Shown here: one piece after another, positions 1 to 15,090 of the stretch
Layout: every line of letters begins with the position of its first letter
Position numbering within the stretch: position 1 is the first letter of the stretch
Virus genome (UHGV): UHGV-1546770
DNA from: a virus
Strand: one strand, 5' to 3'
Length of the DNA: 31,581 nt
Notes under the pieces: generated by a model
What the model was told of the DNA's origin: nothing
What the model saw: the letters and a program-made list of their open reading frames with translations, nothing else
The model's database searches: none
Program-made: the position numbers and the translations under genes

Positions 1-1
1 G

Positions 2-235: not shown

Positions 236-292
236 ATATAATTTTAAACACTGGCAGGGCGGCGTATCCTGCATCTCAGATTCCCTATAAGA

Positions 293-350: not shown

Positions 351-481
351 GATTAGTAGCGATAAGCATTTATGCTTTGCTTAAAGCAGTTTCTGAGGAA
401 TTATATGAAAAAAATGCATCAAGTCGCTAATTTATATGCCGCCACACGACAGGTCGGCAATCTTTGTTGTTGACTTTAATT

Positions 482-572
482 TGGTCCCCCCGGAATGGAT
501 CGAACATTCATATACCTTGTGAGGGCCTCTCCGTTATAAGCAGAGGGCTATAACCAATTTAGCTACGAGGGG
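482..572 (-). tRNA. tRNA-like gene with ~19-nt variable region, anticodon loop CUUAUAA (UAU), encoded CCA
   Basis: Hand fold: acceptor CCCCTCG/CGGGGGG (7 pairs incl. one G-U), D-arm GCTA-AATTGGTTA-TAGC, anticodon stem CTCTG/CGGAG, T-arm GAATG-TTCGATC-CATTC, discriminator A plus CCA. Confidence 0.5.
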
Positions 573-760
573 AGATATTAATTTGCCGTCTTTCCGAGCT
601 GTCACCGTTTCTGCCGATTTGTAGGGTTCGTTCGAACAGTTTAAGCAACTTATCCCTTGGTAATGATAGCAAGCGAGGCCGCGTATGACCCCTAACAGAC
701 TTAAAAGTTACTGGTTCTATCTTCACTCAAATCTGACATTGTACGCTACTCACTATCATT

Positions 761-843
761 TGGTGGGCAGGGTGGGTGTCGAGCCCACTACCCCGAAGGA
801 ACGGATTTACAGTCCGCCGCGTTTGCCGATTCGCTACCTGCCC
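761..843 (-). tRNA. tRNA-Tyr (anticodon GTA), type II, encoded CCA
   Basis: Hand fold: perfect 7-bp acceptor GGGCAGG/CCTGCCC, D-arm GCG-AATCGGCAAA-CGC, anticodon loop CUGUAAA, 12-nt variable arm with CC-TTCG-GG hairpin, T-arm GTGGG-CTCGACA-CCCAC (C at position 54). Confidence 0.7.
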
Positions 844-854
844 ATATTTATTTG

Positions 855-930
855 GTTGCTGAAGCTCTGGAATTGAACCAGATTAAAACGACTTATGAGG
901 CCGCTTGAGATACCTACCTCCCACCAGCAA
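855..930 (-). tRNA. tRNA-like gene with Met/Ile2-type anticodon loop CUCAUAA (CAT); acceptor stem imperfect
   Basis: Canonical core GCGGC-CUCAUAA-GTCGT, 5-nt variable loop, T-arm TCTGG-TTCAATT-CCAGA; no clean 7-bp acceptor pairing found by hand, so possibly a pseudogene or a misfold. Confidence 0.4.
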
Positions 931-983
931 TATGTTGCAACTTTAGTATTTTATATAGGTCGTACAGTTGCCACAAAGACCTG

Positions 984-1060
984 TGGTACGCCACCTCGAA
1001 TTCGAATCGAGACTTGATGCATTTTGAGTGCATTTCCTCTGCCAATTGGGATAGTGGCGC
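984..1060 (-). tRNA. tRNA with anticodon CAA (Leu by anticodon) but type-I body with 5-nt variable loop, encoded CCA
   Basis: Hand fold: acceptor GCGCCAC/GTGGCGT (7 pairs incl. G-U), anticodon arm ATGCA-CTCAAAA-TGCAT, T-arm CTCGA-TTCGAAT-TCGAG, discriminator A plus CCA. Confidence 0.6.
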
Positions 1061-1071
1061 ATATTAAAGAA

Positions 1072-1145
1072 TGAAAACGATAAGACTTGAACCAATGTCT
1101 TCCTCGTTCGTAGCGAGGCACTCTATACAACTGAGTGACGCTTGC
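1072..1145 (-). tRNA. tRNA-Arg (anticodon ACG), partly degenerate
   Basis: Anticodon arm CCTCG-CTACGAA-CGAGG matches the canonical Arg-ACG loop; D-arm ACTC-AGTTGTATA-GAGT; T-arm ATTGG-TTCAAGT-CTTAT (one mismatch); acceptor GCAAGCG/CGTTTTC (one mismatch); no CCA. Confidence 0.5.
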
Positions 1146-1203
1146 ATATTTGACTCTTAGGTCAGTCAGCCACACATTACTTAACGCATTCCATTTGTTC
1201 GCG

Positions 1204-1290
1204 TGGTGCAGGTGAAGGGCCACGATCCCTCAATCCCATCTGGGCGACAGATTTTAAGTCTGTTCTGTATTCCAATTCCAGCACACCTGC
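1204..1290 (-). tRNA. tRNA-Leu (anticodon TAA), type II, encoded CCA
   Basis: Hand fold: perfect acceptor GCAGGTG/CACCTGC, D-arm CTG-GAATTGGAATA-CAG, anticodon arm ACAGA-CTTAAAA-TCTGT, 15-nt variable arm, T-arm GAGGG-ATCGTGG-CCCTT, discriminator A plus CCA. Confidence 0.65.
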
Positions 1291-1771
1291 ATATCAATGG
1301 GCAGTTTTCAGAGATACCCAGCTCTGCCAGTACTCAAAATTCTATCTATCTCACACATTAACCTATTTTCACATAAGGATGGCTACCATTCAGCCTTGTG
1401 GATAACCTATGGTCATTGAACTTGAAACCAAACCATTGCTCAAGGATTTTGTAAAACTTTGTGGGCACACAATTTTAATTAACAATTATCTAAAAGCCCT
1501 CTTTACAACTTTAAGACTTAAACTTTGACGAAAAAATAATCTTTGAGCATTGATCTCTGAACATTGATATTTAAACTTTAATCTTTACAGTTGAAAAATA
1601 TATGTACATCTTAATTTTAAGTCAATCCATATATTAACTTTCTTACTATATTATTAGCATTAGTAAAAATATTGTTGAAGACCAATTTTTTTATTATTTC
1701 ACATCAATGTATCGGTCAAAACCATCGAAGCAAGTCCGTTCTAGGTTTTCGAATGGCAGCAAGTTAGCTGC

Positions 1772-2428
1772 TTAATACTCGATATCAAGCACAGTTAGTG
1801 CGTTACTAACCGAAAGCGCCGCATCAACTTCAGTAATGAAACTAGAAATCTCATTGTCAAGCTGTTCAATGGCATCCTTGACACCAATAGGATCAATGAT
1901 GTCATAAGTGTTGTCCTTGATGTACTGAGCACGAAGATTCTTCATCGCTTCCGAATCAACAGCCATCTTAGAATCCTTCGGCTGTGCCTGAATGACACTA
2001 AGAACATAATTCTCTGCTCTCTTCTCAAGAGGATCACCACTGTTCTTATCAAGCTCATTCTTTGCTACAGCATACTGAGATTCAAGACACTTCTTAAATG
2101 TGTTCTTGAACTCCATCCCATGGTTCTTCATCTCAATTGCGGTAGCAACTGTGTATTCGTTGTCACCAACCTTAACCTTCGTTACTGCATTAGATGCAAC
2201 AACCGCCTTCTTGATTGCATTACGTCTTGCAATCAGATCAGACACCTTCTGGAAATCTGACTTCATGCTGTTCTTAAACTCATTAATGGTCACTCCATGA
2301 ATCTTCTCATTAGAATGCTTATTCGCAACTACAAACGTACCAGAACAAATCGCATTATTGATACGTGAATCAATAACCTTAAGTTCTGCAAGAGCCTTGT
2401 GGACTGTCATCTGTTCCTTCGTTGCCAT
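1772..2428 (-). CDS. hypothetical protein (218 aa)
   Basis: Intact minus-strand ORF; AAAAGGAG RBS before the ATG; last gene before the tRNA array; no recognisable motif. Confidence 0.6.
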   Translation of the reverse strand: MATKEQMTVHKALAELKVIDSRINNAICSGTFVVANKHSNEKIHGVTINEFKNSMKSDFQKVSDLIARRNAIKKAVVASNAVTKVKVGDNEYTVATAIEMKNHGMEFKNTFKKCLESQYAVAKNELDKNSGDPLEKRAENYVLSVIQAQPKDSKMAVDSEAMKNLRAQYIKDNTYDIIDPIGVKDAIEQLDNEISSFITEVDAALSVSNALTVLDIEY

Positions 2429-2602
2429 AATTCATAATCTCCTTTTAGTGATTTTTAATTATTAACTATAATTATGTACTATCTAGCGTGTTTACATATT
2501 ACCACATTACTTGTCATATGTCAAGTCCATCTTGTGGTTTTTCTTTTTATGTATTCAAGCGGCTCAATCAATCAAGTTGGCTCTCTCTTGACTACATTCT
2601 GA

Positions 2603-2631
2603 ATTATACCACAATAATTTCGTATTGTCAA
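2603..2631 (-). promoter_or_regulatory. sigma70-type promoter, exact consensus TTGACA-N17-TATAAT
   Basis: Minus strand TTGACA atacgaaattattgtgg TATAAT; the -35 hexamer overlaps the TGA stop of the upstream gene. Confidence 0.6.
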
Positions 2632-2972
2632 GGGGTATTTTCAAGAATTTCTACTGGAGTTTCAAATACACGACTGTTTAGTGCAATCAGATCTGCTCTA
2701 AACATATCAATTCGCTTATCAAAAGCACTATAATACTTCTTCATAAGCTTTTCCTTTGCAAGCATCTTACCCTTCTCCTCGTCGTACACATCACCTTTCG
2801 CAAGCTTGACCTTGACCTTAAACTGCTTAGGCATCATGTACTTCTCACGAATCATATAACAGTCAAACTCATTGAGAAACTTATCAATCTTATTAATTGC
2901 ATCAAGCTCAGTTCCTCTTAGAACAGCGAACGTTTCCTTCGTGTTTGGGTTGCTATAATACTGAATAGCCAT
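2628..2972 (-). CDS. hypothetical protein (114 aa)
   Basis: Intact ORF in the co-directional series; preceded by tandem promoters at 3032-3060 and 3114-3142. Confidence 0.6.
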   Translation of the reverse strand: MAIQYYSNPNTKETFAVLRGTELDAINKIDKFLNEFDCYMIREKYMMPKQFKVKVKLAKGDVYDEEKGKMLAKEKLMKKYYSAFDKRIDMFRADLIALNSRVFETPVEILENTP

Positions 2973-3031
2973 TTTTTCTTTTGTCCTTTCTTTTTTAAAT
3001 AATTTTTTATTGTCTTTTGACTTATGCTTGA

Positions 3032-3060
3032 ATTATACCATATGTTTTTCTGTTTGTCAA
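3032..3060 (-). promoter_or_regulatory. sigma70-type promoter, exact consensus TTGACA-N17-TATAAT
   Basis: Minus strand TTGACA aacagaaaaacatatgg TATAAT; tandem with the 3114-3142 promoter. Confidence 0.6.
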
Positions 3061-3113
3061 TATCTTTTTTCGTTTTTTTGAATCACATATTGACTTCTTT
3101 CAACTATGCTTGG

Positions 3114-3142
3114 ATTATATCACAATAATTTCTGTTTGTCAA
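3114..3142 (-). promoter_or_regulatory. sigma70-type promoter, exact consensus with TGn extended -10
   Basis: Minus strand TTGACA aacagaaattattgtga TATAAT; -35 overlaps the TGA stop of the 3139-3669 gene. Confidence 0.6.
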
Positions 3143-3669
3143 GTGGCACTTTTTAAATATGCCCTACTATTCGCAAGTAATCCAAGTAATTTTACGGCTG
3201 TATTACAAATACAATCTCCATCTTGCCACCACATACACTTCTCCTCTGAACACATCAACGTTTTTGACGACGTTGCAGTATCAGAAAGACAATAGCATAG
3301 TGGACAGTATTTTTTATCTTCCATGTCCGTCACCTCACATAAAAAATCAAAACTATCCATGAACTCATTATATTGTTCTACACAGCGCTCAAGACATGGA
3401 AAGTTATTAACTTCTTTCTTATATTGTTTTCCATAAAACTGCATATATGGCTGTCCAAACTCTTCATCAAGCACTAGCACATTATCAAAGTCATTCCAGT
3501 CAGAGATATCGTTTTTAAAGCAAATACTTACACTCAGCGCATGGTCAATACTCTTTGTTACATACCACGCCGCATCATGATTAATCCAGCTTCCGCCTTC
3601 TCTAAAATGTGCTTCAATAAGCTGCTCTTTAGTTGGCACATACTTAAGTTTATAGCTTTTTGCTTTCAT
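3139..3669 (-). CDS. hypothetical Cys-rich protein (176 aa)
   Basis: Intact ORF; start ATG overlaps the stop of the upstream ORF; C-terminal CPLCYC and CMWWQDGDCIC motifs. Confidence 0.6.
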   Translation of the reverse strand: MKAKSYKLKYVPTKEQLIEAHFREGGSWINHDAAWYVTKSIDHALSVSICFKNDISDWNDFDNVLVLDEEFGQPYMQFYGKQYKKEVNNFPCLERCVEQYNEFMDSFDFLCEVTDMEDKKYCPLCYCLSDTATSSKTLMCSEEKCMWWQDGDCICNTAVKLLGLLANSRAYLKSAT

Positions 3670-3893
3670 TATTTCACCTCATCCATCTTCGCGCCACAGT
3701 TGTGGCAGTAATTATGCGTATATTCTTGAGGGCATCCGCAATCGTTGCACCTATACTTCCACGACAGCCATGTTGCGATTTGATTTATTGCGTTCCAATT
3801 TCGGCGGCTGTTTGAGCCAATCCTCAACACCGTGTAAACATTTATTGAAACATTTCGGTGATTCGCACTCATTGATTTCTGCACAGCACTCAC
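3669..3893 (-). CDS. hypothetical zinc-ribbon protein (start uncertain)
   Basis: C-terminal CNDCGC...CHNCG motif; stop overlaps the start of 3139-3669; no RBS seen before either candidate start; overlaps 3751-4080 in another frame. Confidence 0.3.
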   Translation of the reverse strand: MSAVQKSMSANHRNVSINVYTVLRIGSNSRRNWNAINQIATWLSWKYRCNDCGCPQEYTHNYCHNCGAKMDEVK

Positions 3894-4080
3894 AAACAGT
3901 GGTCATTGATGCAATCCATGCAGCTAATTCCTCATCGCTCATCGCCCGGATGTGGTCGGCGTTGGTTCGCTTTTTCCTCCGGTACTCGCAAAAAGAAGCT
4001 GTGCATTCTCCTCTGATAAAATAAGTGCAATTTGTTTCTGCTTCTTCTGGTGTTCCAGCACCACATGTGTACTTAATCAC
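3751..4080 (-). CDS. hypothetical Cys-rich protein (109 aa)
   Basis: GTG start preceded by AAGGAG; multiple Cys (CECCAEINECESPKC). Confidence 0.45.
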   Translation of the reverse strand: MIKYTCGAGTPEEAETNCTYFIRGECTASFCEYRRKKRTNADHIRAMSDEELAAWIASMTTVCECCAEINECESPKCFNKCLHGVEDWLKQPPKLERNKSNRNMAVVEV

Positions 4081-4312
4081 TTGTACGCTCCTTAATAAAT
4101 TTTTCCCTGATTGCTTCTTTCTCTGGGTCTTCGTATGATGTCTGCCAATACGCTTGCAGCCATTGGATATGCCTTATTTCTTCGTCAGATAGCAAGTACA
4201 GATGATCCAAAACAACCTGTCTGCGCTTGTATCGGTCTGGATGGGCGTTCCCTGCATAGATGCACTGGCAGCTTTCATACTCACAGATTGGACACTTAGC
4301 CATTGTCAGCAC
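4073..4312 (-). CDS. hypothetical zinc-ribbon protein (79 aa)
   Basis: N-terminal CPICEYESCQC motif; intact ORF in series. Confidence 0.5.
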   Translation of the reverse strand: MLTMAKCPICEYESCQCIYAGNAHPDRYKRRQVVLDHLYLLSDEEIRHIQWLQAYWQTSYEDPEKEAIREKFIKERTSD

Positions 4313-4562
4313 CTTCTTTCCGTTCTCCGTATGAGCAGAAATCGTTGTCCTCAGTCCAGTTAAATGACAGTCTCATAGGGCAAGGCGGCTTGTTATGGTA
4401 CTTGCACTCCCGACATCTGACCACTTCCACGGCATCCTTTTCCAATAGCAATGCCGCTTTTCCATAAACGGAATGCTCATATACTCCCGGTGTAAAATCA
4501 GCATCGTGAATCATTTTTAATGCCGTTGCTACCGTCCGTCTATCGGCATCAATCGGCCGCAT
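4296..4562 (-). CDS. hypothetical protein (88 aa)
   Basis: Intact ORF; CRECKYHNKPPCP motif; short overlap with neighbours. Confidence 0.55.
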   Translation of the reverse strand: MRPIDADRRTVATALKMIHDADFTPGVYEHSVYGKAALLLEKDAVEVVRCRECKYHNKPPCPMRLSFNWTEDNDFCSYGERKEGADNG

Positions 4563-4818
4563 CTATAATCTCCTCCAAACCTGCAATATGTTCAATCATC
4601 ATTTCTTTCGCAAACAATTCTCCTTTATGCAAGCATTCTCTCGCTTGAATAGATGCATCGACCAATTCATCAATAAGCTGCTTTAGGTTATTCGCATCAC
4701 TATACCCGTCATAATCGAAACCGATGTCCCATATAAATTGTAACCATTCATCTACACAATTTGGCTCACACATTTTACATCCTGTCTGTTCATCAATCCA
4801 ATATTTCATTTTATTCAC
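4549..4818 (-). CDS. hypothetical protein (89 aa)
   Basis: Intact ORF; CKMCEPNC motif. Confidence 0.55.
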   Translation of the reverse strand: MNKMKYWIDEQTGCKMCEPNCVDEWLQFIWDIGFDYDGYSDANNLKQLIDELVDASIQARECLHKGELFAKEMMIEHIAGLEEIIDAAD

Positions 4819-4834
4819 TCAAAATCCTTAGTTA

Positions 4835-5167
4835 TTATTTATCCTCTAACACCCAAATGTCACCGCGCTGCTCTACAATTTTATAATTCTCAACAACCTC
4901 GTTATAAGACACAGAATCATCAATAATACATTCGTATCGGTATTCACCGGTTTTAACAATACATGTTAAAATTCCACAAGTAACCATAATGGATAAACCA
5001 ATAATAAGAGAAGATGTAGTTGCCCAAACAGGCCCATCAAGGATCATAGACACAGCAAATACAATTAATCCAGTAACAAATATTATGAATGCCAATACTG
5101 ATACCCACGTGGGCAAACCAGTAACAGCCGTTTTATTTAATATAGTTATCCCTTCTACCATTCTCAT
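4835..5167 (-). CDS. hypothetical membrane protein (110 aa)
   Basis: Two hydrophobic stretches (VSVLAFIIFVTGLIVFAV, LIIGLSIMVTCGILTCIV) consistent with transmembrane helices. Confidence 0.6.
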   Translation of the reverse strand: MRMVEGITILNKTAVTGLPTWVSVLAFIIFVTGLIVFAVSMILDGPVWATTSSLIIGLSIMVTCGILTCIVKTGEYRYECIIDDSVSYNEVVENYKIVEQRGDIWVLEDK

Positions 5168-5397
5168 TCCTCCACAAAATATTGAATATACAATTGAATT
5201 ACATCACCTTCTGCCTCAATTCTCTCAGCTTCTTCAATTAATCCTTGCGCTTCCCAATATTTTTCCTGTTTAAATTTTTCTAACTGTTCACGAGTTGCTA
5301 ATTCTATTTCAGGATACTTCCTAAAGAGGTCAAGCAAATCTTCTTTTTGCCACCATGTGAGATTCGTAGATTCCATTTCTTTTCTAGTCATTACCAT
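5164..5397 (-). CDS. hypothetical protein (77 aa)
   Basis: 4-nt start/stop overlap with downstream gene; charged helical composition. Confidence 0.55.
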   Translation of the reverse strand: MVMTRKEMESTNLTWWQKEDLLDLFRKYPEIELATREQLEKFKQEKYWEAQGLIEEAERIEAEGDVIQLYIQYFVEE

Positions 5398-5687
5398 AAA
5401 TCCTCCGAATATAATTCACAGACAATCCTCTCTGCTAAATCATCGCATGCCGAACGCGCCACACTCCAATTCATTGCCTTTCTATGACAATCTTCGCAAT
5501 GATAATAAAAATTATCCGTATCGTCATATCGACAGCTATCACAATAAATATCATCGAATGCTTTATAAATAAGGTTGCTTATTGCCTCTTTATTCTTTTC
5601 AAGTTTTTTGACTGGTACTACTCTAACATATGAAGGACAACTATCGTCACAAAGAGCACAATGTCTACCATCTTCACATATCATCAT
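5391..5687 (-). CDS. hypothetical Cys-rich protein (98 aa)
   Basis: CALCDDSCP, CDSCRYDD and CEDCHRK motifs. Confidence 0.55.
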   Translation of the reverse strand: MMICEDGRHCALCDDSCPSYVRVVPVKKLEKNKEAISNLIYKAFDDIYCDSCRYDDTDNFYYHCEDCHRKAMNWSVARSACDDLAERIVCELYSEDLW

Positions 5688-5692
5688 TTTTA

Positions 5693-5950
5693 TTATTCTC
5701 CTTTTATCTCATATTTTTCTATTAGTTCGTTTAATTTACTTAAGCCATTCTTAGAAATTAAATCGTTTTCATAAAGGAAATCACATAATGCTTCAAGTTC
5801 AGAGACAGGGATGACCTCTATTGTAGGAAATTTATCAAGAAACGCTTTCTGCTTGAGGCAGTATTCTCTGATAACAGCAACATTCATATTTTCATTATCT
5901 TTATCAAATATGATTACTTGATTTACCACATCAGTATCAATTGGTCTCAT
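5693..5950 (-). CDS. hypothetical protein (85 aa)
   Basis: Intact ORF in series. Confidence 0.55.
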   Translation of the reverse strand: MRPIDTDVVNQVIIFDKDNENMNVAVIREYCLKQKAFLDKFPTIEVIPVSELEALCDFLYENDLISKNGLSKLNELIEKYEIKGE

Positions 5951-5965
5951 TTTATTTAGCCCTCC

Positions 5966-6235
5966 TCAAATCTTTCTCCCCAAACAATCAACTTCAACAA
6001 CATCATTGTCGAGCACATCTGTTTCATAAAGCATCTCTTCTAGCGCATGAAGCTCATCAAAATAATATGCAAGTTTCTTCTTTAGGTTTTCTATAGCTTC
6101 TTCTTTTGTTTCGCCATATCCATAAATATTTGTTAAGTCAAAATTATGATATCTATCAGCATCATTAAATAAATAACAAGTATGTGACTGAGACTTTTCC
6201 TTTCCATCATTATGATGTGCGATTTTCATTAACAT
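5966..6235 (-). CDS. hypothetical protein (89 aa; start trimmed from track ORF 5966-6298)
   Basis: Internal ATG at 6233-6235 preceded by AAAGGAG at about 6 nt; the longer track ORF would overlap 6210-6410 by 89 nt. Confidence 0.5.
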   Translation of the reverse strand: MLMKIAHHNDGKEKSQSHTCYLFNDADRYHNFDLTNIYGYGETKEEAIENLKKKLAYYFDELHALEEMLYETDVLDNDVVEVDCLGRKI

Positions 6236-6410
6236 AATTTGCTCCTTTCGGATCGTACATGTCACAAGCACCTGTGTCCTCATAACACAAATGCCCAACT
6301 ATAAAAGTCATCCCCATTTCTTTTTCTTTAGGAGTTGGATGTGGGATATCACAGCATAAATTCCAATCTCCACAACCAATATAATGCTTGCATGTCCCGC
6401 ATTTATCCAT
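6210..6410 (-). CDS. hypothetical zinc-ribbon protein (66 aa)
   Basis: CGTCKHYIGCGDWNLCC motif; downstream of promoter at 6535-6562. Confidence 0.45.
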   Translation of the reverse strand: MDKCGTCKHYIGCGDWNLCCDIPHPTPKEKEMGMTFIVGHLCYEDTGACDMYDPKGANYVNENRTS

Positions 6411-6534
6411 TTATCTTACGCCTCTTTCGTAAAAAATAGATACATATAAGCCAATCCTTATATTCATTTGACATTTGTTGATTGCTCCTTTATAAATTTG
6501 TTGCCTTAATGTACTATAATTTTATACTGTAGCC

Positions 6535-6562
6535 AGTATATCATATATCTGCTATTTGTCAA
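6535..6562 (-). promoter_or_regulatory. sigma70-type promoter (TTGACA-N16-TATACT)
   Basis: Minus strand TTGACA aatagcagatatatga TATACT in the 6411-6734 intergenic region. Confidence 0.4.
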
Positions 6563-6607
6563 TATGGCAAATTGTACAAAACTGTAGTTTATATTTTGCA
6601 ATTTTTA

Positions 6608-6643
6608 TATAAAAAAATAACTCCCACTATATAAGTGGGAGTT
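6608..6643 (-). terminator. putative intrinsic terminator
   Basis: Hairpin AACTCCCAC-tatataa-GTGGGAGTT followed on the minus strand by a T-run (complement of A7 at about 6611-6617); downstream of the helicase gene. Confidence 0.5.
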
Positions 6644-6734
6644 TATGTATAATTAAATCAATACATTGCTAAATATTATTTAATTAATACTATCAATCTT
6701 AAGACTATATCCAAGGATCTCACCTTTGTTGGCT

Positions 6735-8282
6735 TTACATTTTCTTCTTAAGTACACCAATTTCTTTCCAAACATTTCCGTCCATATCTACTTCAAAGCA
6801 GATCAAATCATTCTTAGAACCAACTCTGTTCTTTACAATTCTTAATCCAACATAATTTTTATCATATCTTAAATCATGTTCTATTGGCTCTCCCCAAGTA
6901 TCATCTTCACAGACATATACATATTTTTGCTTGTCGTCTGCTGTTAGGTGTTTCCACATTTGCATTTGGTCAGTAACATGCATCATTCTCTTTGAACTTG
7001 CGATCTCTTGAGAATTTAAGTTTTCAATGGGGATATCATGCGCTGAATCTGTAAGCTGGAAAGTACAAATACAATACATTTTTGTTTCATGAATCCACTC
7101 TGTAATTTTTGTAGCAGTTGCGGCTAACTTTGCAAAGTCTTCAAGTCCAGAACATTTAAGTGTATCATATGCTACACCATCACACTTGTAAATTGTATTG
7201 GCTTTTTTGATTTCCATTTCAAGCACTTCATCTTCATAGCAAGAGCCGATATTCTTAAACAAGAATTTGCCACTACTTTCAGATTCAACCCATTGCATAA
7301 TTCGTTGCACCTTACGATATTCAGAAGATGTTTCATAAATTCTCTTTTTATAAGACTCTTCATCTTCTGTATACACACCATTATCATCCATTTGTCTATA
7401 GATATACTTTCCGTTATCATCTTTATATGATCCGAGTGCAATTTCTCTTTCTGGTTTATAAATATCTTTAATTCCATGTAGCTCTTGAATCTCTGGAGAA
7501 TTAATGCATGTAACTAAGAAGTTCAATTTAATGCTCTCTGCTGACATTTCGTTTGCAAGCAATAGAATTTTTTGCTTTTGAACAAGGACTAGATACGCAA
7601 TAAGATAAACGAGATTTCTGCCCTTACCACTATTGCTCAAAGCTCCTGTCATCAAAACGTTTCCGGGAAGTAATCCTCTATAATACTTCTGAAGATATGG
7701 CCATGGCCCAGCAACACCCATAGATGGCATGCACAAGAATTGGTCAATACATGAAACTGCGTTCTCTGTAAGAACAACAGGTTCATCAATTGCTTGTACT
7801 TTATTAGCTACCTTGTCAATTCGACCACGAACAATTCTACAAATATCATCTGGCGTTAATGCATTGAAATTCTTAATTGCCAAGATTTTTGATACGTCAT
7901 ATCCAGTCTCATTAAAAGCCCTTAGTAATGAAAACTTTTTAAATATTGAAAGATAATTCTTAATATCATGAGGGTCACTCATTGCCATTAATTCTTTAAT
8001 TGTCTTATATCCACCATACTGTCTGTATTGTTTAAAACGCTCTTTAGACATGCTACAGAACGTATTAATTTTCAATTCAGTAAAATCTTCAGAATATGAA
8101 ACATAATAATCAGAAAATAACTGATAAAAAAACTCACATGCCTTGTCCGAAAAATCATATTTTGGGACAATTGAGGTTCCATATGTTAGATATAATGTTG
8201 GCTCTTTATAAAATGATCCAACTACCAGCATTTCGGACTGGCTATTAGTTAATTCAAGTTCCATATTTTCACTTCCTATCAA
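6735..8282 (-). CDS. DnaB-like replicative helicase family protein (515 aa), divergent P-loop
   Basis: P-loop-like GALSNSGKGR, and C-terminal LRIVKNRVGSKNDLICFEVD resembling the DnaB-family KxRxG motif; sits in a replication-type gene neighbourhood. Confidence 0.5.
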   Translation of the reverse strand: MIGSENMELELTNSQSEMLVVGSFYKEPTLYLTYGTSIVPKYDFSDKACEFFYQLFSDYYVSYSEDFTELKINTFCSMSKERFKQYRQYGGYKTIKELMAMSDPHDIKNYLSIFKKFSLLRAFNETGYDVSKILAIKNFNALTPDDICRIVRGRIDKVANKVQAIDEPVVLTENAVSCIDQFLCMPSMGVAGPWPYLQKYYRGLLPGNVLMTGALSNSGKGRNLVYLIAYLVLVQKQKILLLANEMSAESIKLNFLVTCINSPEIQELHGIKDIYKPEREIALGSYKDDNGKYIYRQMDDNGVYTEDEESYKKRIYETSSEYRKVQRIMQWVESESSGKFLFKNIGSCYEDEVLEMEIKKANTIYKCDGVAYDTLKCSGLEDFAKLAATATKITEWIHETKMYCICTFQLTDSAHDIPIENLNSQEIASSKRMMHVTDQMQMWKHLTADDKQKYVYVCEDDTWGEPIEHDLRYDKNYVGLRIVKNRVGSKNDLICFEVDMDGNVWKEIGVLKKKM

Positions 8283-8944
8283 ATTAAGTCTTCCAAAAGA
8301 TCGCTAATATCCCCTAATCCATCATTCTGTTCAACTGCTTTAATTTTGCTATAATCAATGTTTACACTCTTTTTAACGCGACTTTGTTCCTCTTTCTCTT
8401 CTGCTTCTTTCTTTGCTTTTTCCTTGGCTTTTGAATATTTTACATAATTACTCATTAAAATAGCAAGATCATAGTTAACTCTTACCTCTCCGTCAATCAT
8501 CTTGCCATGATGCTTGTTCCATGCATTTGTTTTGTCTAGTTCTTTCTGATAGTCCTTCCACATATCAAACAATGTTTCTAAGTCAATTGGCTTGCACCGT
8601 TTTCCATTATATTTTCCAGATTGAATGTCTGCAATCATTGACCAAAAACGACGACTTAATGCCCCAACATCATAATGTGCAATCAAATACTCATTGAATT
8701 CGTCTTGCACAAAACGATGCATTAATTTCTTTTTTGCTTCTAATTCTAGTTGATCTAAATTCTGTAAGGCATCTGAATAAATGGACGAGTACCTGTTGTT
8801 TTTTAGTACTCGCCCATTACACATTGTTTTAAAACATTCAGTATGATAGCTTTTCTGTTTGTAAGAAACCATATGCATATCATTTTTTGTCAAAACAATA
8901 TCTTCCCCACAGAACGCGCATTTTCTAATTAAAGTGGCGCTCAT
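8279..8944 (-). CDS. hypothetical zinc-ribbon protein (221 aa), possible replication accessory factor
   Basis: N-terminal CAFCGED...HTEC ribbon; K/E-rich C-terminus; 4-nt overlap with the helicase gene start suggests coupling. Confidence 0.5.
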   Translation of the reverse strand: MSATLIRKCAFCGEDIVLTKNDMHMVSYKQKSYHTECFKTMCNGRVLKNNRYSSIYSDALQNLDQLELEAKKKLMHRFVQDEFNEYLIAHYDVGALSRRFWSMIADIQSGKYNGKRCKPIDLETLFDMWKDYQKELDKTNAWNKHHGKMIDGEVRVNYDLAILMSNYVKYSKAKEKAKKEAEEKEEQSRVKKSVNIDYSKIKAVEQNDGLGDISDLLEDLI

Positions 8945-8956
8945 TGTTATGTCTCC

Positions 8957-10033
8957 TTACTGTGAAACTACTTCAAGAATCTGGTTTAGAATAGCAATAT
9001 CTGTAACCTTGGCGAACTGGTCTGGAAGTCCTGCTTCCTTTATGGCAGCACGTTTGGCTTTCTTGTCTTCAGGAGAAAGAGATGACAGAACTCCCTTAAT
9101 TTCTGCCTTAAGGTTCTTGCATTCTTCGTCTTTTCTAATTTCCACATCCAACTCGTCTGTTTCCATTAGATCCTCTTTATGTGAATTATAATAGTCTTCC
9201 TTTTCTTTTTTCTCCTGCTTTGATTTGCTCTCAATATATTCGTCTGTTGCGTCATGAGACTTAATAGAGTTCTTAATTGCATCCTTGACAGTATCAATAT
9301 AATTCTTTGCAGAAACTTCTACTCTGTCAGCAATATCTTCAAATCTACCACCTGCATCAATATATCCATTTCCACGAAAGTACATCCATCTGCTAACACC
9401 ATCTACATGCCCATCAGTAATTTCTCTTTCAATAACACCCATCATACAAATATCTGCCTTGTTAGCAAAAATCGAATCATAATCTGTTGAAAGATTAGAT
9501 GTAAGCATCTGGTATTCATCGCCATTTTTCTCTTTAATATCCTTAATCTTAGTGTGCCCAATAAACACTAGACAGTACCCACTAGATTCTAGTCTGGTAA
9601 TAACGGAATTAATTAGCTCATCCACTTTTCTACGCCCAGCTCCATAACCTCCAAAACACGCATTAAATTCATGCTTGGTGCCAGACTTCTTATAGTCAAG
9701 ACGCACAATTTCCTTTTGAGCCATAGAAATCCATTCGTCAACGGTATCAAATGCAATAATAGAAAACGAATTTTCGTCCTTATTTTCTACTAGTTCGTCA
9801 ACGACTTCCATTAGTGTAGCCCAATCTGGGCAATCAGCAACCATTAGATTGTCAATAGCAAGATAACCTCTCTCATTTCCACAGCTAATCAATAGGCCAT
9901 GACTCATGTCGCCATATAGTTCTTTAATTAAATTTGCAAACAATGTAGTTTTGCCCCATTTTTTTGGTGCTCTCCAATAGTGGCGATAGTTAGTAATATC
10001 TACTGTTACCTCATTTTTCTTCCATAAAGCCAT
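8957..10033 (-). CDS. P-loop ATPase, RecA-like (Sak4/AAA_24-like)
   Basis: Walker A APKKWGKTT, Walker B-like SIIAFDTVDEW, and LVFIGHTK motif; K/E-rich C-terminal extension. Confidence 0.5.
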   Translation of the reverse strand: MALWKKNEVTVDITNYRHYWRAPKKWGKTTLFANLIKELYGDMSHGLLISCGNERGYLAIDNLMVADCPDWATLMEVVDELVENKDENSFSIIAFDTVDEWISMAQKEIVRLDYKKSGTKHEFNACFGGYGAGRRKVDELINSVITRLESSGYCLVFIGHTKIKDIKEKNGDEYQMLTSNLSTDYDSIFANKADICMMGVIEREITDGHVDGVSRWMYFRGNGYIDAGGRFEDIADRVEVSAKNYIDTVKDAIKNSIKSHDATDEYIESKSKQEKKEKEDYYNSHKEDLMETDELDVEIRKDEECKNLKAEIKGVLSSLSPEDKKAKRAAIKEAGLPDQFAKVTDIAILNQILEVVSQ

Positions 10034-10040
10034 AATAATA

Positions 10041-11051
10041 TCAGTCTCCTTTACCTTTTAAACTATTTATATATCTATCTAACTCTTCTTGTGTGATATA
10101 TCCTTTTTCAATTGCATCTTCCGCATACAACCAATGCAATGCCTCGCCTGTTTGTGGATGTTTATACGTATAATTTTGTTTACCTCTACAGCACTTTGTA
10201 ATAGAGCTTGGATCACATCCATATAAATTTTGTACTTCTTTTGCTCCCCAAAAAATTTGATTTAATTCTATACAATATATTCTTCTACATTTCCACCAAT
10301 TACTACCTTTACGAGAATCACTCATCTTTTTCTTTGCTTCTTCTGTGTGATGTTTCCCATACATTGGATGATTGCTTGGATTTATAAATCTTTCTTTTGC
10401 TTTTTCTGATAGATTTAATTTTTGTTCATCTGACAATTTTTTACCTAAACTGGGATGTTGTTTTCCTATCCATATATGTTTGCCTTTAGTTGTTGGATTT
10501 GCCCAATATAATTTATGTTTTTCATACCATTGTTTATATGTTTCTTCATCCATGCGTTCTTTTGGAGAAACTTTAAACTGTGGATTATTCTCGCCTACTA
10601 ATCCTGCTCTTCCATACATTGGATGATTATTTGGATCTGAAAGTCTTTCTTTTGCAGCTTTTGATATCTTTTTTCTTGTTTCTTTACTTGGAGTCCATCC
10701 TTGCGTTGTTCCTCCACCATAAACAAGATTATACCAATTGTTAGATTCAACAGCATTAAAGAAAACACTATAATTATATTCCATTTCATTTAATTCTTCT
10801 GCAGAATAAGCAATATCAATTACATTTCTTACAAAATTTTCTTTTCCATATTTGTCAATTGCTTGTTTAAATGCTGCACCACTACCAAGATATTCTTGCC
10901 AATTTCCATAGAATTTTCTTTGGCCTAAATATCTTTTGCCATCAATCAAATTCGTTGTGATATAAATAAATCCATATGGATCTTTTACTTCCGTATATGT
11001 TGTATCTTGTAGCCCATCAACGGAAGAATTCATTTCTTTTAATTCTTCCAT
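10041..11051 (-). CDS. GIY-YIG homing endonuclease with NUMOD3 repeats and NUMOD1-like HTH
   Basis: N-terminal YGFIYITTNLIDGKRYLGQ (GIY-YIG), repeated NHPMYG...K..S motifs, C-terminal ELNQIFWGAKEVQNLYGCDPSSITKCCRGK helix-turn-helix. Confidence 0.7.
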   Translation of the reverse strand: MEELKEMNSSVDGLQDTTYTEVKDPYGFIYITTNLIDGKRYLGQRKFYGNWQEYLGSGAAFKQAIDKYGKENFVRNVIDIAYSAEELNEMEYNYSVFFNAVESNNWYNLVYGGGTTQGWTPSKETRKKISKAAKERLSDPNNHPMYGRAGLVGENNPQFKVSPKERMDEETYKQWYEKHKLYWANPTTKGKHIWIGKQHPSLGKKLSDEQKLNLSEKAKERFINPSNHPMYGKHHTEEAKKKMSDSRKGSNWWKCRRIYCIELNQIFWGAKEVQNLYGCDPSSITKCCRGKQNYTYKHPQTGEALHWLYAEDAIEKGYITQEELDRYINSLKGKGD

Positions 11052-11124
11052 CTATTATCACTTCGCTGTCTATAATTTAGTATTGTCTAGGGAAGCTTTA
11101 ATTCTTCCCTAGACTTATGGATTC

Positions 11125-12201
11125 TTACCATGGCTCATCTTCGTCGTCAGATTCATCGTCGCCCCAATCATCATCCACATTGGATGTTGACTCTGCCTTA
11201 CCAGTGAAATCCTGTTCTGCTTTCTTTGATGCATTTACCTTCTTAATTGCCTCATCAATTGCCTTTTCAGTATATGTTTCTTTGTCAATAGTTGATGGCT
11301 TTGCACCTGTAATAATAAGTTCTCGATGAGTCGGTGCAAAAACTCTCTTATTGTCCATATCATTAGATTCGCCCCAGCAATCATCGTCTTCCTCATCATT
11401 CACGTCTTCAACATTATTAACAACATTGATGTGTCCATGAACCTGAATGGAATTATAAGGCTTTAGCCCACTACGCATCTGCTTTGCGAGTTTTGCATCT
11501 TCAATAATAAATTCAGCAGACTCAATAGAGTTATAATTCACAATCTTTGCATCTACCACAAATCGACCAGTTGGCTTGTCGTTTTCTCTTTCCTGATCAA
11601 TACCAACAAAAACAATTGTCTGCGTAAAATCATGAGCGGGAGCATAATCCTCCGCCTCAAAGTCAACATCATTCTGACATAGAGAAATTTGTGTTGGGAC
11701 AAACTTTGTGGTACGAGAGACTTCCCCATCTTTGTTAGTATAACTGCCAAATTCTAGATTTCCTTTAACAAAAACAGAATCACCATCCTGAAGATTCTCG
11801 CTAATGTATTCACATGCGTCATACTCAGTAAGCGTCTTGTTGTCGTTTCTTACCTTTCCGTTTTCGTCCTTGATCTTCTGAAGTCCAGTAAGCACACCAA
11901 TCATACGATAGCCTTCAGGAGCCTTCTTAATTCTGTCTTTCCATGCAATTGCCTTTGTATCAGTATTGCCAGTGTCTTTATCCTTCTTACTAAAATACAC
12001 CTTGTCACGCGGCATACCATTAAGCGTTGGGAAAATTGTCTTCTTGTCATCATACTCCACGCCAAAATTAATCATTCTGAACTCTTTGCCAGTTCTTGTC
12101 TGCTTTTCTACGTAGAAACTATCCTTTTCTACTCCGCTTACAATTCCTCTAACCTGAAAAGTTCCCTTGGTTTGTGGAAGTTCAAAAAGTTTGTTTGCCA
12201 T
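11125..12201 (-). CDS. putative ssDNA-binding protein (358 aa) with acidic C-terminal tail
   Basis: C-terminus DDDWGDDESDDEDEPW (acidic tail ending in an aromatic residue, as in SSB/gp2.5-type proteins); lies in the replication module. Confidence 0.4.
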   Translation of the reverse strand: MANKLFELPQTKGTFQVRGIVSGVEKDSFYVEKQTRTGKEFRMINFGVEYDDKKTIFPTLNGMPRDKVYFSKKDKDTGNTDTKAIAWKDRIKKAPEGYRMIGVLTGLQKIKDENGKVRNDNKTLTEYDACEYISENLQDGDSVFVKGNLEFGSYTNKDGEVSRTTKFVPTQISLCQNDVDFEAEDYAPAHDFTQTIVFVGIDQERENDKPTGRFVVDAKIVNYNSIESAEFIIEDAKLAKQMRSGLKPYNSIQVHGHINVVNNVEDVNDEEDDDCWGESNDMDNKRVFAPTHRELIITGAKPSTIDKETYTEKAIDEAIKKVNASKKAEQDFTGKAESTSNVDDDWGDDESDDEDEPW

Positions 12202-12253
12202 ATTTTATTAGTCTCCTTTTCCTATAATTTTGTATTGTTTAATAAAATAAAAA

Positions 12254-12463
12254 TTAATACTTATAATATCTTTCATCCATGACCGCATTATAATATGTGT
12301 ATTTGTCTAAAATGTCTTTCCCTATGTTCAACATATAATTTTCGTGCTCACAGCATGGACATCTCGCTTGTATATATAAATACTCAATGTAATTATTTTG
12401 TTCATCAACCTGAAAAATTGTTCCACATTTCTGGCATTGAACATTGACGCTCTTTGATTTCAT
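12254..12463 (-). CDS. hypothetical zinc-ribbon protein (69 aa)
   Basis: CQKCG...CPCCEHEN motifs; downstream of two consensus promoters. Confidence 0.5.
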   Translation of the reverse strand: MKSKSVNVQCQKCGTIFQVDEQNNYIEYLYIQARCPCCEHENYMLNIGKDILDKYTYYNAVMDERYYKY

Positions 12464-12532
12464 TCATCATTCATCCCCCTTTCTCAACAATTGAAAAGAC
12501 TATAATTTTATATTACATCTCATTACGATTGC

Positions 12533-12561
12533 ATTATACCATAACAATTGCGTCTTGTCAA
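12533..12561 (-). promoter_or_regulatory. sigma70-type promoter, exact consensus TTGACA-N17-TATAAT
   Basis: Minus strand TTGACA agacgcaattgttatgg TATAAT. Confidence 0.6.
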
Positions 12562-12735
12562 GTTTTTTATCGAAGATCGAAAAATTTTGTATTTCACTTT
12601 TACTTTATATTAATTCGCTGCTGATTATTGCGCAATTTCCATTTAACTCGATATTCGCAATTCCATTGTTCTTTTATTTTTTGTACCAATCATAACGTAT
12701 TGTGATTCTTACATTATAAATTTTTCGCTTATTTT

Positions 12736-12764
12736 ATTATACAGTACAAAATTATCATTGTCAA
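12736..12764 (-). promoter_or_regulatory. sigma70-type promoter, exact consensus TTGACA-N17-TATAAT
   Basis: Minus strand TTGACA atgataattttgtactg TATAAT, immediately downstream of the recombinase stop codon. Confidence 0.6.
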
Positions 12765-12770
12765 ATCTTA

Positions 12771-13745
12771 TTAAACCATATCATCCAAAATATTCGCGGC
12801 TTGCTGCTTTTTGTCTTTAGACATATTTGCATATCTCATAGTAGTAGCAATATTTTTATGATTAAGAACTGACGCACAAAGATAAATATCTCCAGTCTTT
12901 TCGTACAAATTAGTTGCACAAGAATGTCTCAACACATGTGGTGTAACATGCTTACTTGTCACATCCTTACTATATTTTTCTAGCATCACCCTAATGCCGT
13001 CTCTTGTAATTCTCTTTTTAAAGCTAGAAATAAACAAGGCATCTGTATTCGCCATGCTAAAATATTTGTTTCTATCCTGTAGCCACAATTCTAGCTGCTT
13101 CTTTACTCTATCGCCAAATAGAATATTACATGTTTTTCCTCTTTTTTCGATTACCTTAATAGTATTATTTTCGAAATCAATATCACCAATATCAATTTGC
13201 GTGATTGCAGATACACGCAACCCAGTAGTTAGTCCAAGCATAATAATGGCTAGATCCCTATTTTTCATCTTTTTGCTTGCAAGCTTATCAACATTTTCAA
13301 GAATCATTTGCATTTCTTTTTCTGTTAAATAAGCAACATCTGGTGTATCTTGCACTTTAGGACGTTCTGTTCTCTCCATTGGATTTTCTTTAATATAATC
13401 ATTTTCTTTAAGGAACCCAAAAAACGTATTCAATGCAGACCACTTTGTCGCACGAATACTATCACTTGTATTATAATGTCCATTGATAGTTTCTTTATTC
13501 TTCAATGCGGCAAAATATTTATTAATATCCAAAGGTGTTACCTTTTTATAAAAATCATTTGAGATTCTATTTTCATTAATAAATTCTGCAAATTCCTTCA
13601 CATATGCTACATATCTCTCAACTGTTGTATAAGATTTAGTTATACACATATAATAATAAAATTCAGAAAAAATTTTAGGAAGTCCTGTTAATTTTGCCTG
13701 CATCTTATTTGTAGCAACAATTTCCTTTTCCATTCTTCCTGTCAT
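12771..13745 (-). CDS. tyrosine recombinase / integrase (XerC/XerD-like)
   Basis: Catalytic-domain motifs TGLRVSA (Arg), HVLRHSCAT (His-x-x-Arg-His) and TMRYANM (Tyr) in the expected order. Confidence 0.85.
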   Translation of the reverse strand: MTGRMEKEIVATNKMQAKLTGLPKIFSEFYYYMCITKSYTTVERYVAYVKEFAEFINENRISNDFYKKVTPLDINKYFAALKNKETINGHYNTSDSIRATKWSALNTFFGFLKENDYIKENPMERTERPKVQDTPDVAYLTEKEMQMILENVDKLASKKMKNRDLAIIMLGLTTGLRVSAITQIDIGDIDFENNTIKVIEKRGKTCNILFGDRVKKQLELWLQDRNKYFSMANTDALFISSFKKRITRDGIRVMLEKYSKDVTSKHVTPHVLRHSCATNLYEKTGDIYLCASVLNHKNIATTMRYANMSKDKKQQAANILDDMV

Positions 13746-13747
13746 TT

Positions 13748-14230
13748 TTAACCCTCCTTAATTTTCTTTTTTCTCCATTTAACAAAAGTATATGTCGCCA
13801 ATGCCCAGATGAAAAGTCTTCCATTCAAAATTGCTGCAATGCCAATAATGAAAACATACCACATCCATCCAATAAGAAGGCAATCTGGCTTCTGCTTGTA
13901 GCAATCTTCTCCATCTTCTACCCAATGATAATATTCCTTATTATTTTTATATACTTTATTTCTATCGACAACAACGTCTCTTGTTTTTGGGGCAATAACA
14001 CTAACAATATTATTCGTAAAAGCATCAAGTGAAAACATAAAATCACATGCCGCGATATTGCTATGGACAAAACATGTATCTGATTTTTTATTGTATTTAA
14101 TAAATGTAATTTCAATTTCTGGGAAAAGTGCAACATCTTTCTTGATGAAATTTTTACATTTAAATTTTGATCCAGTGTAATATCTAGTTCCGTTATAGTC
14201 AAAGTAATCGCACATAACACCGTTGTTCAT
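13748..14230 (-). CDS. hypothetical membrane-anchored protein (160 aa)
   Basis: C-terminal hydrophobic helix WMWYVFIIGIAAILNGRLFIWALATYTF then basic tail; only 3 nt upstream of the recombinase gene. Confidence 0.55.
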   Translation of the reverse strand: MNNGVMCDYFDYNGTRYYTGSKFKCKNFIKKDVALFPEIEITFIKYNKKSDTCFVHSNIAACDFMFSLDAFTNNIVSVIAPKTRDVVVDRNKVYKNNKEYYHWVEDGEDCYKQKPDCLLIGWMWYVFIIGIAAILNGRLFIWALATYTFVKWRKKKIKEG

Positions 14231-14231
14231 A

Positions 14232-14477
14232 TTAAGACATTACCTCCTCAATAATATCAACTACTTCACTAAGCAAATCAATGCATTCTTCAAGATGTTC
14301 ACAACACTCTTCTGCCTTGCTATACCTGTCAGATCCTTGCAAATTCTCAGGCATATTATCTAGGCACTCCTGTTCTTCGTCATAAATATCTTGAATACGA
14401 CTATTAAGCTGTTCAATTTCTGTGGATAGGGTTTCTAGTTTTTTTCTGCGTTTATTATTCATAGAAAATACCTCCAT
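14232..14477 (-). CDS. hypothetical acidic coiled-coil protein (81 aa)
   Basis: Intact ORF, strongly acidic; downstream of consensus promoter at 14510-14538. Confidence 0.5.
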   Translation of the reverse strand: MEVFSMNNKRRKKLETLSTEIEQLNSRIQDIYDEEQECLDNMPENLQGSDRYSKAEECCEHLEECIDLLSEVVDIIEEVMS

Positions 14478-14509
14478 TCAAAAATTATAATTATTTATTT
14501 GTTATTATG

Positions 14510-14538
14510 ATTATAACGCTATAATTTTGTTTTGTCAA
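14510..14538 (-). promoter_or_regulatory. sigma70-type promoter, exact consensus TTGACA-N17-TATAAT
   Basis: Minus strand TTGACA aaacaaaattatagcgt TATAAT; -35 overlaps the TGA stop of the methyltransferase gene. Confidence 0.6.
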
Positions 14539-15059
14539 GTATTTTGTTGAGTTTTCTTTACCCTCCATACGGGCGCGGATTTAGTTCCACCAACTCGCTC
14601 AACAGAATCAAACATCGAAAGCAAAATCTCCTCGATATCTGTTCCTTTTAGATCCATCTTTCGAGGGCTTTGAGGATAATTACAAACAAATTCTCCATTA
14701 TTTTCCATTACTAGTTTAATTTGATTCAATGTTTCAAAAAGCATTTGCAGAGAACTCTGCACATTAAGCACATTAGAAGCGAATACGATATCATACTGTC
14801 TATTCAGTGCAAATTTATCGAGTAGTACATCTCCATTGCCAACCCATAGATCATATGCTACCACATCAAATCCTTTGCTTAGAAGATATTTTGTACTAGT
14901 AGCTCCCTTCCCCGCACCAAAGTCGAGAATTGTTTTACTCTTATCCACATTACTTTCCACCCAAAGAGGAACTATTGCACGAATCTTTCCATCCTTAATA
15001 GCCGAAGCGCCTGCACTCCGACTAGTTGCTTTTGCAATTTTGATCTCCTGAGCTGTCAT
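14535..15059 (-). CDS. class I SAM-dependent methyltransferase (174 aa), substrate unknown
   Basis: Motif I ILDFGAGKGATS, acidic post-I residue in VVAYDL, and IVFASNVLNV block. Confidence 0.6.
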   Translation of the reverse strand: MTAQEIKIAKATSRSAGASAIKDGKIRAIVPLWVESNVDKSKTILDFGAGKGATSTKYLLSKGFDVVAYDLWVGNGDVLLDKFALNRQYDIVFASNVLNVQSSLQMLFETLNQIKLVMENNGEFVCNYPQSPRKMDLKGTDIEEILLSMFDSVERVGGTKSAPVWRVKKTQQNT

Positions 15060-15090
15060 ACTTTAATGTCCTTTCTATTACAAAGCTAAT

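Follow-up and report, generated by a model that had tools for sequence, protein, structure and literature searches.

Can a replicative helicase of the DnaB family still act as a motor when the Ser or Thr that follows the Walker A lysine has been replaced by glycine? The question is raised by a gene at positions 6735 to 8282 of a stretch of UHGV virus genome UHGV-1546770, 31,581 nucleotides long and referred to here as the window, whose product (hereafter the query) carries a phosphate-binding loop (P-loop) ending in Gly-Lys-Gly-Arg. The Ser/Thr directly after the lysine, at position K+1, belongs to a pair of catalytic side chains regarded as the only ones conserved across all P-loop nucleoside triphosphatases (NTPases). 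Sequence comparison identifies the query as the replicative helicase of a human-gut phage of ~150 kb, a relative of Bacillus phage SPbeta. We consider it probable, at roughly 60%, that it is an active replicative hexameric helicase in which the Mg2+ ligand normally provided by the Ser/Thr hydroxyl is a water molecule, possibly at the cost of speed. A working helicase is favored because the protein has the full DnaB architecture, because the residues specific to hydrolysis are invariant under strong purifying selection, because the gene occupies the one position for a helicase in a conserved replisome operon, and because the glycine has repeatedly interchanged with the canonical GKS/GKT forms among close relatives.

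The sequence-only reading had placed the gene at 6735-8282 without stating its strand. Translation of both strands confirmed an open reading frame (ORF) there, a single long one on the minus strand, while the plus-strand reading contains many stops; the coding sequence itself is probably shorter. The longest form of the ORF begins with a TTG at 8282, which overlaps the stop of the preceding gene, and encodes 515 amino acids; all residue numbers given here follow this form. The ATG at 8264 is probably the real start, since a GGAAG lies 7 nt upstream of it, all close homologs open with MELEL, and the cluster representative P0001 (99% identical) is 509 amino acids long. Both motif strings reported earlier, GALSNSGKGR and KNRVG, are encoded on the minus strand, the opening glycine of the former being G213 (L-M-T-G213-A-L-S-N-S-G-K220-G221-R222). 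An out-of-frame ORF of 101 amino acids within the helicase gene is an entry in the ORF list and is considered putative.

Standard profiles do not recognize the protein. Pfam DnaB_C gave no match to the query at E<=0.1, because the helicase is too divergent, and the NCBIfam model TIGR03600 (phage_DnaB) scored 23.7 bits, below its cutoff of 498.65. Since both models miss the subfamily, annotation pipelines label such helicases "hypothetical protein". PHROG_19, "DnaB-like replicative helicase", matches residues 5-508 with E=9.4e-30, and the relatives P0120 and P0162 carry precomputed PF03796 matches. A phmmer search of PDB sequences retrieved E. coli DnaB (6bbm; E=9e-5), with SNSGKGR placed on RPSMGKTT and ANEMS on SLEMP. 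An AlphaFold2 model built from a 30-sequence alignment has a mean pLDDT (predicted local distance difference test) of 85.7, and its best 50 Foldseek hits in the PDB are all DnaB (4esv, 4nmn, 7t22, 6t66 and others), T4 gp41 or SPP1 G40P. These hits have E values of 1e-19 to 5e-15 over ~500-530 aligned columns and cover both the helical N-terminal and the RecA-like C-terminal domain, so that model and Foldseek together give the two-domain DnaB architecture of helical N-terminal domain, linker and RecA-like C-terminal domain. The modeled N-terminal helical domain is equivalent to the N-terminal, primase-binding collar domain of DnaB. Taken from sequence and model, the query is a full-length DnaB-family helicase (superfamily 4 [SF4], RecA fold) of the type represented by SPbeta YorI and Geobacillus phage E3 gp100.

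Alignment of the catalytic motifs required a broader profile. Single-sequence hhalign and sequence-only comparison with E. coli DnaB, G40P and T7 gp4 reached the N-terminal half and the Walker A/Glu region only, or nothing, being too weak for the C-terminal half, which became alignable with a hidden Markov model (HMM) made from 90 diverse family members. This HMM scored E. coli DnaB at 91 bits, G40P at 56 and T7 gp4 at 31, and aligned four motifs: Walker A (SNxGK[STG]R in the query family, RPSMGKTT in E. coli DnaB, GSGMGKST in T7 gp4), the catalytic Glu (NEM, LEM and LEE, respectively), Walker B (YDTLK, IDYLQ and LDHIS) and the H3 sensor (FQLTD, SQLNR and CHLKN). The Walker A consensus A/G-x4-G-K-[ST] is thus only partly present: its first residue aligns with A214, and the lysine and glycines fall on those of DnaB, with Gly221 at K+1. 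The GKG aligns exactly on DnaB GKT and T7 gp4 GKS, and there is therefore no other P-loop; nor does the protein contain a canonical Walker A elsewhere. The proposal of a DnaB-like helicase with a non-canonical Walker A accordingly holds in fold, architecture and motif positions, which match those of DnaB, G40P and T7 gp4.

The remaining active-site residues are in place. E245 is invariant in 30 of 30 and in 29 of 29 sequences. K484 and R486 are, at the level of the motif, likely the trans-acting Lys/Arg fingers (KQR in DnaB, KHR in G40P, K-C-R522 in T7 gp4); in DnaB-type helicases the KxR pair forms fingers that act in trans on the gamma-phosphate (PMC9599734). The KNR lines up locally with G40P KHR and gp4 K-C-R522 with pairwise scores within shuffle noise, pairwise alignment of this C-terminal region with E. 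coli DnaB was likewise not above shuffle noise, and the HMM alignment ends before KNR. An insertion of ~90 residues (residues ~248-336) separates the strand of the catalytic Glu from the next core strand. The P-loop of the YorI-type subfamily, S-N-x-G-K-[STG]-R, has a nearly invariant Asn at K-3 and Arg at K+2, both of which canonical DnaB (RPSMGKTT) lacks.

The glycine is a fixed feature of the query lineage. We surveyed the 120 best 90%-identity cluster representatives and found SGKGR in 31 of the 31 whose identity to the query exceeds 70%, a set that represents several hundred member sequences; the remaining 89, at 41-46% identity, comprise 85 GKS and 4 GKT proteins. Clade members encode Gly221 by GGC, GGA or GGT. 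Pairwise Nei-Gojobori estimates within the clade gave a nonsynonymous divergence (dN) of 0.10-0.27 with saturated synonymous divergence (dS; >1.4 or undefined), and dN/dS, as derived from this saturated dS, is at most ~0.15 in both domains. Of the 509 columns in an alignment of 29 clade members, just 206 show no variation, and these include N217, G219, K220, G221, R222, N244, E245, D373, T374, K376, Q409, K484, N485 and R486. This pattern of conservation indicates that Gly221 is kept by selection in the query lineage. It also bears on the idea that GKG is a sequencing or assembly error, or that the gene is a decaying, pseudogenized helicase. Only the rarity of GKG speaks for such an origin; against it stand hundreds of independent assemblies, an intact ORF of 509-515 amino acids on >20 near-complete viral contigs, the three synonymous Gly codons and the strong purifying selection. 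We give the idea practically no credence, and regard an artefact or a pseudogene as excluded on these sequence data.

GKG also occurs outside the query clade. When 1.84 billion 50%-identity representatives were searched exhaustively with a profile, 921 relatives emerged, of which the top 150 were inspected. About 106 of these cover the P-loop: 57 have GKS, 40 GKT, one GKA, and seven GKG in addition to the query's own cluster. All eight GKG representatives keep the NE, DTK, Q and K[NT]R residues. The apparent Ala at K+1 (GQGKAQ) belongs to P0251, a longer protein of 839 amino acids that is only partly aligned. In neighbor-joining (NJ) trees the GKG proteins fall into three groups. Group A is the query clade. 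Group B contains P0144, P0145, P0146, P0150 and the helicase of contig L067 and has the GKS protein P0143 nested within it (100% bootstrap). In group C, P0162 and P0171 are intermixed with two GKS proteins, P0156 and P0169 (100% bootstrap). Three separate GKG origins, as drawn from the first NJ tree, were undercut by an L-INS-i realignment, which gave 41-46% bootstrap for joining A, B and C into one larger group. Fitch parsimony required 3-5 changes between Ser/Thr and Gly in 200 of 200 bootstrap trees, and on these trees the robust count of such switches is a minimum of three only. Recombination was rejected as a source of the similarity between lineages A and B, the sliding-window identities being without block structure. 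Several sites seem convergent with GKG (N344, F182, I405, E420, H445 and Ser at K-2). As candidates for compensatory substitutions they failed: they occur in the GKS relatives P0143, P0156 and P0169 as well and are absent from some GKG proteins. Since they are present in GKS relatives, they mark a wider subgroup rather than compensation.

Kozlova et al. 2022 analyzed >3,000 Mg-NTP sites and found the K+1 Ser/Thr strictly conserved, acting as Mg2+ ligand #4 and hydrogen-bonded to the Walker B Asp (PMC9599734). Glycine occurs naturally at this position in several nucleoside monophosphate (NMP) kinase families, including adenylate kinase, with water as Mg2+ ligand #4, and asparagine in torsinA and E. 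coli DnaC; the exceptions listed in the survey include no RecA/SF4-class protein (PMC9599734). We infer that the query hydrolyzes NTP and unwinds DNA and, by analogy with these kinases, that water serves as the substitute Mg2+ ligand. It would be the phage's own SF4 motor, working with a Toprim primase, a RecJ-like exonuclease and a polymerase of the PolIII alpha type (alpha subunit of DNA polymerase III) in an SPbeta-like replisome. In its lineage the Walker A Ser/Thr has given way to a Gly that selection retains. The P-loop backbone and K220 would keep Mg-NTP bound, water would take the place of the hydroxyl as fourth Mg2+ ligand, as in the GKG-type adenylate kinases, and hydrolysis would be driven by E245, D373, Q409 and the likely trans fingers K484/R486, at a rate that may be lower or differently regulated.

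Several points weigh against such a motor. Replacement of the K+1 Ser/Thr is reported to abolish activity, and this residue has been proposed to relay a proton from the attacking water during hydrolysis; the loss of the hydroxyl in GKG NMP kinases has been argued to suppress futile ATP hydrolysis; and torsinA and DnaC are both slow switch ATPases (PMC9599734). Among our own results, no compensating substitution was found, N344-type sites occurring in GKS relatives too. None of 68 helicases sampled beside PolIII alpha genes is GKG; all are GKS or GKT, and GKG is therefore a minority state. Finally, the family HMM search that detected no second DnaB-like ORF in the window and in contigs L002 and L234 covered ~50 kb of the ~150-kb genome. 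It is thus possible, though in our judgment unlikely, that the query is an NTP-binding ring homolog with deficient or very slow hydrolysis, serving as an ATP-gated switch or scaffold, the way E. coli DnaC and torsinA operate without a K+1 hydroxyl, and not as an unwinding motor. Such a ring could conceivably recruit the primase or a host helicase, or act in the manner of a loader. It retains the lysine and the backbone of the P-loop, enough to bind nucleotide, and the natural cases without Ser/Thr are kinases or slow switch ATPases, a helicase loader among them (PMC9599734). However, a pure binder would need neither E245, D373 and Q409 nor the putative KxR fingers, all of which stay invariant throughout clade A as well as in the remaining GKG lineages. 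The gene also occupies the only helicase slot of its operon, at the same position as its GKS orthologs, and repeated switching between Ser/Thr and Gly, as with the GKS protein P0143 amid GKG proteins, is hard to square with repeated loss and regain of a motor. A pseudo-helicase or loader would be marked by drift of the catalytic residues together with a separate active helicase; here the residues are invariant, and the ~50 kb searched holds no second DnaB-like gene. The sequence-only reading had left the choice between a divergent active helicase and an ATPase-dead scaffold or loader; residues, operon slot and switches favor the former, and an ATPase-dead scaffold appears unlikely.

It could also be that the glycine changes the use of cofactor or fuel without lowering activity, through another divalent metal, another NTP or dNTP, or a Mg2+ ligand supplied by S218, N217 or R222. 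T7 gp4, for example, prefers dTTP. The unusual subfamily P-loop, with the invariant N217 and R222 that canonical DnaB lacks, would fit such a change, as would the Ser/Thr at K-2 in clade A and several other GKG proteins. Yet N217 and R222 are equally invariant in the GKS/T members, Ser at K-2 is found in the GKS proteins P0115, P0126 and P0143 as well, and several GKG proteins have Ala, Met or Gln there. We regard this explanation as quite improbable.

The genomic setting of the helicase was followed in the window and in related contigs (Table 1). More than 20 IMG/VR viral contigs, 134-160 kb long, carry the helicase at 97-100% identity, and so do human-gut metagenome contigs of comparable size. 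The YorH-like gene always lies directly upstream of the helicase, and the GKS sister clade has the same YorF-AAA_24-YorH-helicase block. Next after the helicase come a primase, a RecJ-like exonuclease and PolIII alpha in E3, in SPR and in L030, a metagenomic relative. The window itself has only small ORFs and an array of seven tRNA genes downstream of the helicase gene. The continuation was found on a contig of the query species, IMGVR_UViG_3300045988_123494 (L234), which overlaps the window and carries the helicase at 729-2291. Here an insert of ~14.9 kb (2291..17175), which overlaps window positions 1..6735, parts the helicase from the primase. The tRNA array lies within it, as do genes for a class-V aminotransferase, a D12 adenine methyltransferase, an RNA-ligase-like protein, an RlaP-like nucleotidyltransferase and an AAA_33 kinase; as a group these resemble a set for RNA/tRNA repair. 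In the array, several tRNA calls exceed the usual length, at 85-91 nt, and the anticodon ATA of one of the two Tyr calls is odd. An insert of 7.6 kb is present in the clade member L074 (helicase 78% identical), and none in E3, SPR and L067.

The replication operon of the query genome is thus stretched by the insert, not lost. The SPbeta-type order YorF-YorG(AAA_24)-YorH-helicase-primase-RecJ is present on one strand, its upstream half in the window and its downstream half on L234, with the insert interrupting it. The primase of the query species was located by walking downstream with the flanking ORF, exact and degenerate peptide patterns having given no match. The operon was followed as far as the RecJ-like gene, and PolIII alpha lies past the sequence examined; none of the best 80 of 328 matches in a PolIII alpha alignment fell on the query's contigs, a result that is uninformative for linkage. 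A GKG helicase directly adjoining these partners is provided by L067, a 174.8-kb viral contig whose lineage-B protein (LAISNSGKGR) is 33% identical to the query and 54% to P0144. It lies directly between the AAA_24/YorH-like genes and a Toprim primase, which is followed by a DHH/RecJ_OB exonuclease, a NUMOD homing endonuclease, a superfamily 1 (SF1) Pif1/RecD-like helicase and a complete PolIII alpha. The SF1 helicase was considered as a substitute motor in GKG operons and rejected, since homologs occur in 21 of 69 GKS/T operons and none was detected in the query's sequence examined.

Table 1. Features of the helicase gene and its surroundings (window positions unless a contig is named)
Feature	Position	Strand	Remarks
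CDS (coding sequence), DnaB-family (YorI / E3 gp100-type) helicase	6735..8264	-	509 aa from ATG at 8264 (probable start)
GGAAG, Shine-Dalgarno-like	8272..8276	-	7 nt upstream of ATG at 8264; read from sequence
N-terminal all-helical domain, residues ~14-151	7830..8243	-	AlphaFold2 secondary structure, Foldseek, profile alignment to E. coli DnaB 29-160
Walker A / P-loop A214-L-S-N-S-G-K220-G221-R222	7617..7643	-	Aligned to DnaB/G40P GKT, gp4 GKS
Gly221, codon GGC	7620..7622	-	At K+1; Ser/Thr in other P-loop NTPases
N244-E245-M246	7545..7553	-	E245 aligned to catalytic Glu, end of strand beta2 (H1a; DnaB/G40P LEM, gp4 LEE)
Walker B (H2) Y-D373-T-L-K	7155..7169	-	Ends predicted strand 369-373; aligned to DnaB/G40P IDYLQ, T7 gp4 LDHIS
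H3 gamma-phosphate sensor F-Q409-L-T-D	7047..7061	-	Aligned to DnaB SQLNR, T7 gp4 CH465LKN
KxR motif K484-N-R486-V-G	6819..6833	-	Ends predicted strand 476-484
101-aa ORF, putative	7172..7477	-	Out of frame within the helicase gene
YorH-like protein, Cys-rich N-terminus	8279..8944	-	Orthologs match PF26927 Phage_SPbeta_YorH, weak or faint
AAA_24 / Sak4-like ATPase, YorG position, replication module	8957..10033	-	
GIY-YIG/NUMOD3 homing endonuclease	10041..11051	-	Between YorF-like and AAA_24 genes
YorF-like protein, weak match to SSB (single-stranded DNA-binding protein)/OB	11125..12201	-	Opens YorF-YorG-YorH-helicase block; ortholog on contig L001 carries PF27337 YorF
Toprim primase	L234 17175-18197	Same as helicase	52-56% identical to L067 and L074 primases
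DHH/RecJ-like gene	L234 from 20191		After primase and ExoX-like protein
tRNA array: Thr-TGT, Ile-TAT, Tyr-ATA, Tyr-GTA, Met-CAT, Leu-CAA, Leu-TAA	2..1290	-	
Tyrosine recombinase (Phage_integrase)	12771..13745	-	Upstream of replication block
DUF932 protein (phrog_1221) and peptidase-like protein (phrog_34186/4191)	22785..23882; 26117..27067	-	Near 600-aa ORF
600-aa ORF	27067..28869	-	No Pfam or PHROG family match

Mobile elements and other neighbors deserve brief description. The GIY-YIG/NUMOD3 endonuclease gene seems to have inserted recently, either at the 5' end of the AAA_24 gene or within that end, because it is missing from L002 (helicase 99% identical), where the AAA_24 ORF is longer (393 amino acids versus 358 in the window). 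The replication operons of relatives are rich in homing endonucleases of the HNH, LAGLIDADG and NUMOD types (for example, L030 9075..13007 and L067 15090..15944), and in L030 they split the PolIII alpha gene into separate ORFs. Relatives pair the tyrosine recombinase with a second, MrpR-like recombinase (L001 3825..5814; L029 4276..6241), for which the window has no room, the gap at 12201..12771 being only 570 nt.

Among named phages, the query has few counterparts. A tblastn search of GenBank phages matched two groups only: Geobacillus virus E3, whose gp100 ("putative replicative DNA helicase") is 31.5% identical over 97% of the query length, and, more weakly, the helicase at the YorI position of SPbeta/SPR. 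These share with the query the upstream block (YorF, AAA_24/YorG, YorH) and the downstream partners, and E3 (GMLSNEGKSR) also shares the P-loop context S-N-x-G-K-x-R. They differ at K+1, which is GKS in E3, GKT in SPR and GKG in the query clade, and in that their helicase adjoins the primase, whereas the query genome has 14.9 kb between the two. Searches of the open-access literature returned no biochemistry for YorI-type helicases, no description of a GKG DnaB-type helicase and nothing specific on K+1 mutants in hexameric helicases.

The better-studied helicases are more distant. DnaB of E. coli, G. stearothermophilus and V. cholerae, G40P and T4 gp41 share with the query the two-domain fold with its linker helix (Foldseek E~1e-19), and in bacterial DnaB and G40P the Walker A Lys, catalytic Glu, Walker B Asp and H3 Gln align with those of the query, whose KxR is a candidate for their finger motif. 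The query is nonetheless only 12-15% identical to bacterial DnaB, G40P and gp41, and differs from them in its ~90-residue insertion and in Gly instead of Thr at K+1. T7 gp4 is likewise an SF4 RecA-type hexameric motor, whose GSGMGKST, E343, D424 and H465 align with SNSGKGR, E245, D373 and Q409 and whose K-C-R522 corresponds, at the level of the motif, to K484-N-R486; however, it has Ser at K+1 and a His sensor where the query has Gly and Gln, and it fuses to its helicase a primase that is a separate gene in the query's phage. The NMP kinases (GKG) and torsinA and E. coli DnaC (GKN) are substituted at the same K+1 position as the query. The former transfer phosphate to an anionic acceptor and the latter, AAA+ switch proteins, have weak ATPase activity; there is no RecA-fold translocating helicase among them.

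What is known here, then, is a phage DnaB-family helicase of the SPbeta/E3 subfamily, and what is new is an uncommon, selectively maintained and recurrent variant of its active site. Compared with the known exceptions at K+1, the query lineage keeps all other catalytic residues, is abundant in the human gut and belongs to a family in which Ser/Thr and Gly were swapped at least three times. The chances seem to us about even that these proteins are the first natural RecA-fold/SF4 translocating motors to hydrolyze NTP and unwind DNA without the Walker A K+1 hydroxyl. The main interest of the family is as a natural test of whether this hydroxyl is indispensable for hydrolysis in a RecA-type motor, for which its GKG/GKS pairs (L067 or P0144 versus P0143, ~48-54% identical) are ready controls. 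If the enzyme is active, the hydroxyl would be dispensable for hydrolysis in RecA-type motors, which would speak against a universal proton relay between the K+1 Ser/Thr and the Walker B Asp, or would mean that water takes over both the ligand and the relay roles. Should it be inactive, an entire group of large phages would run its replisome with a nucleotide-gated, non-hydrolyzing DnaB ring.

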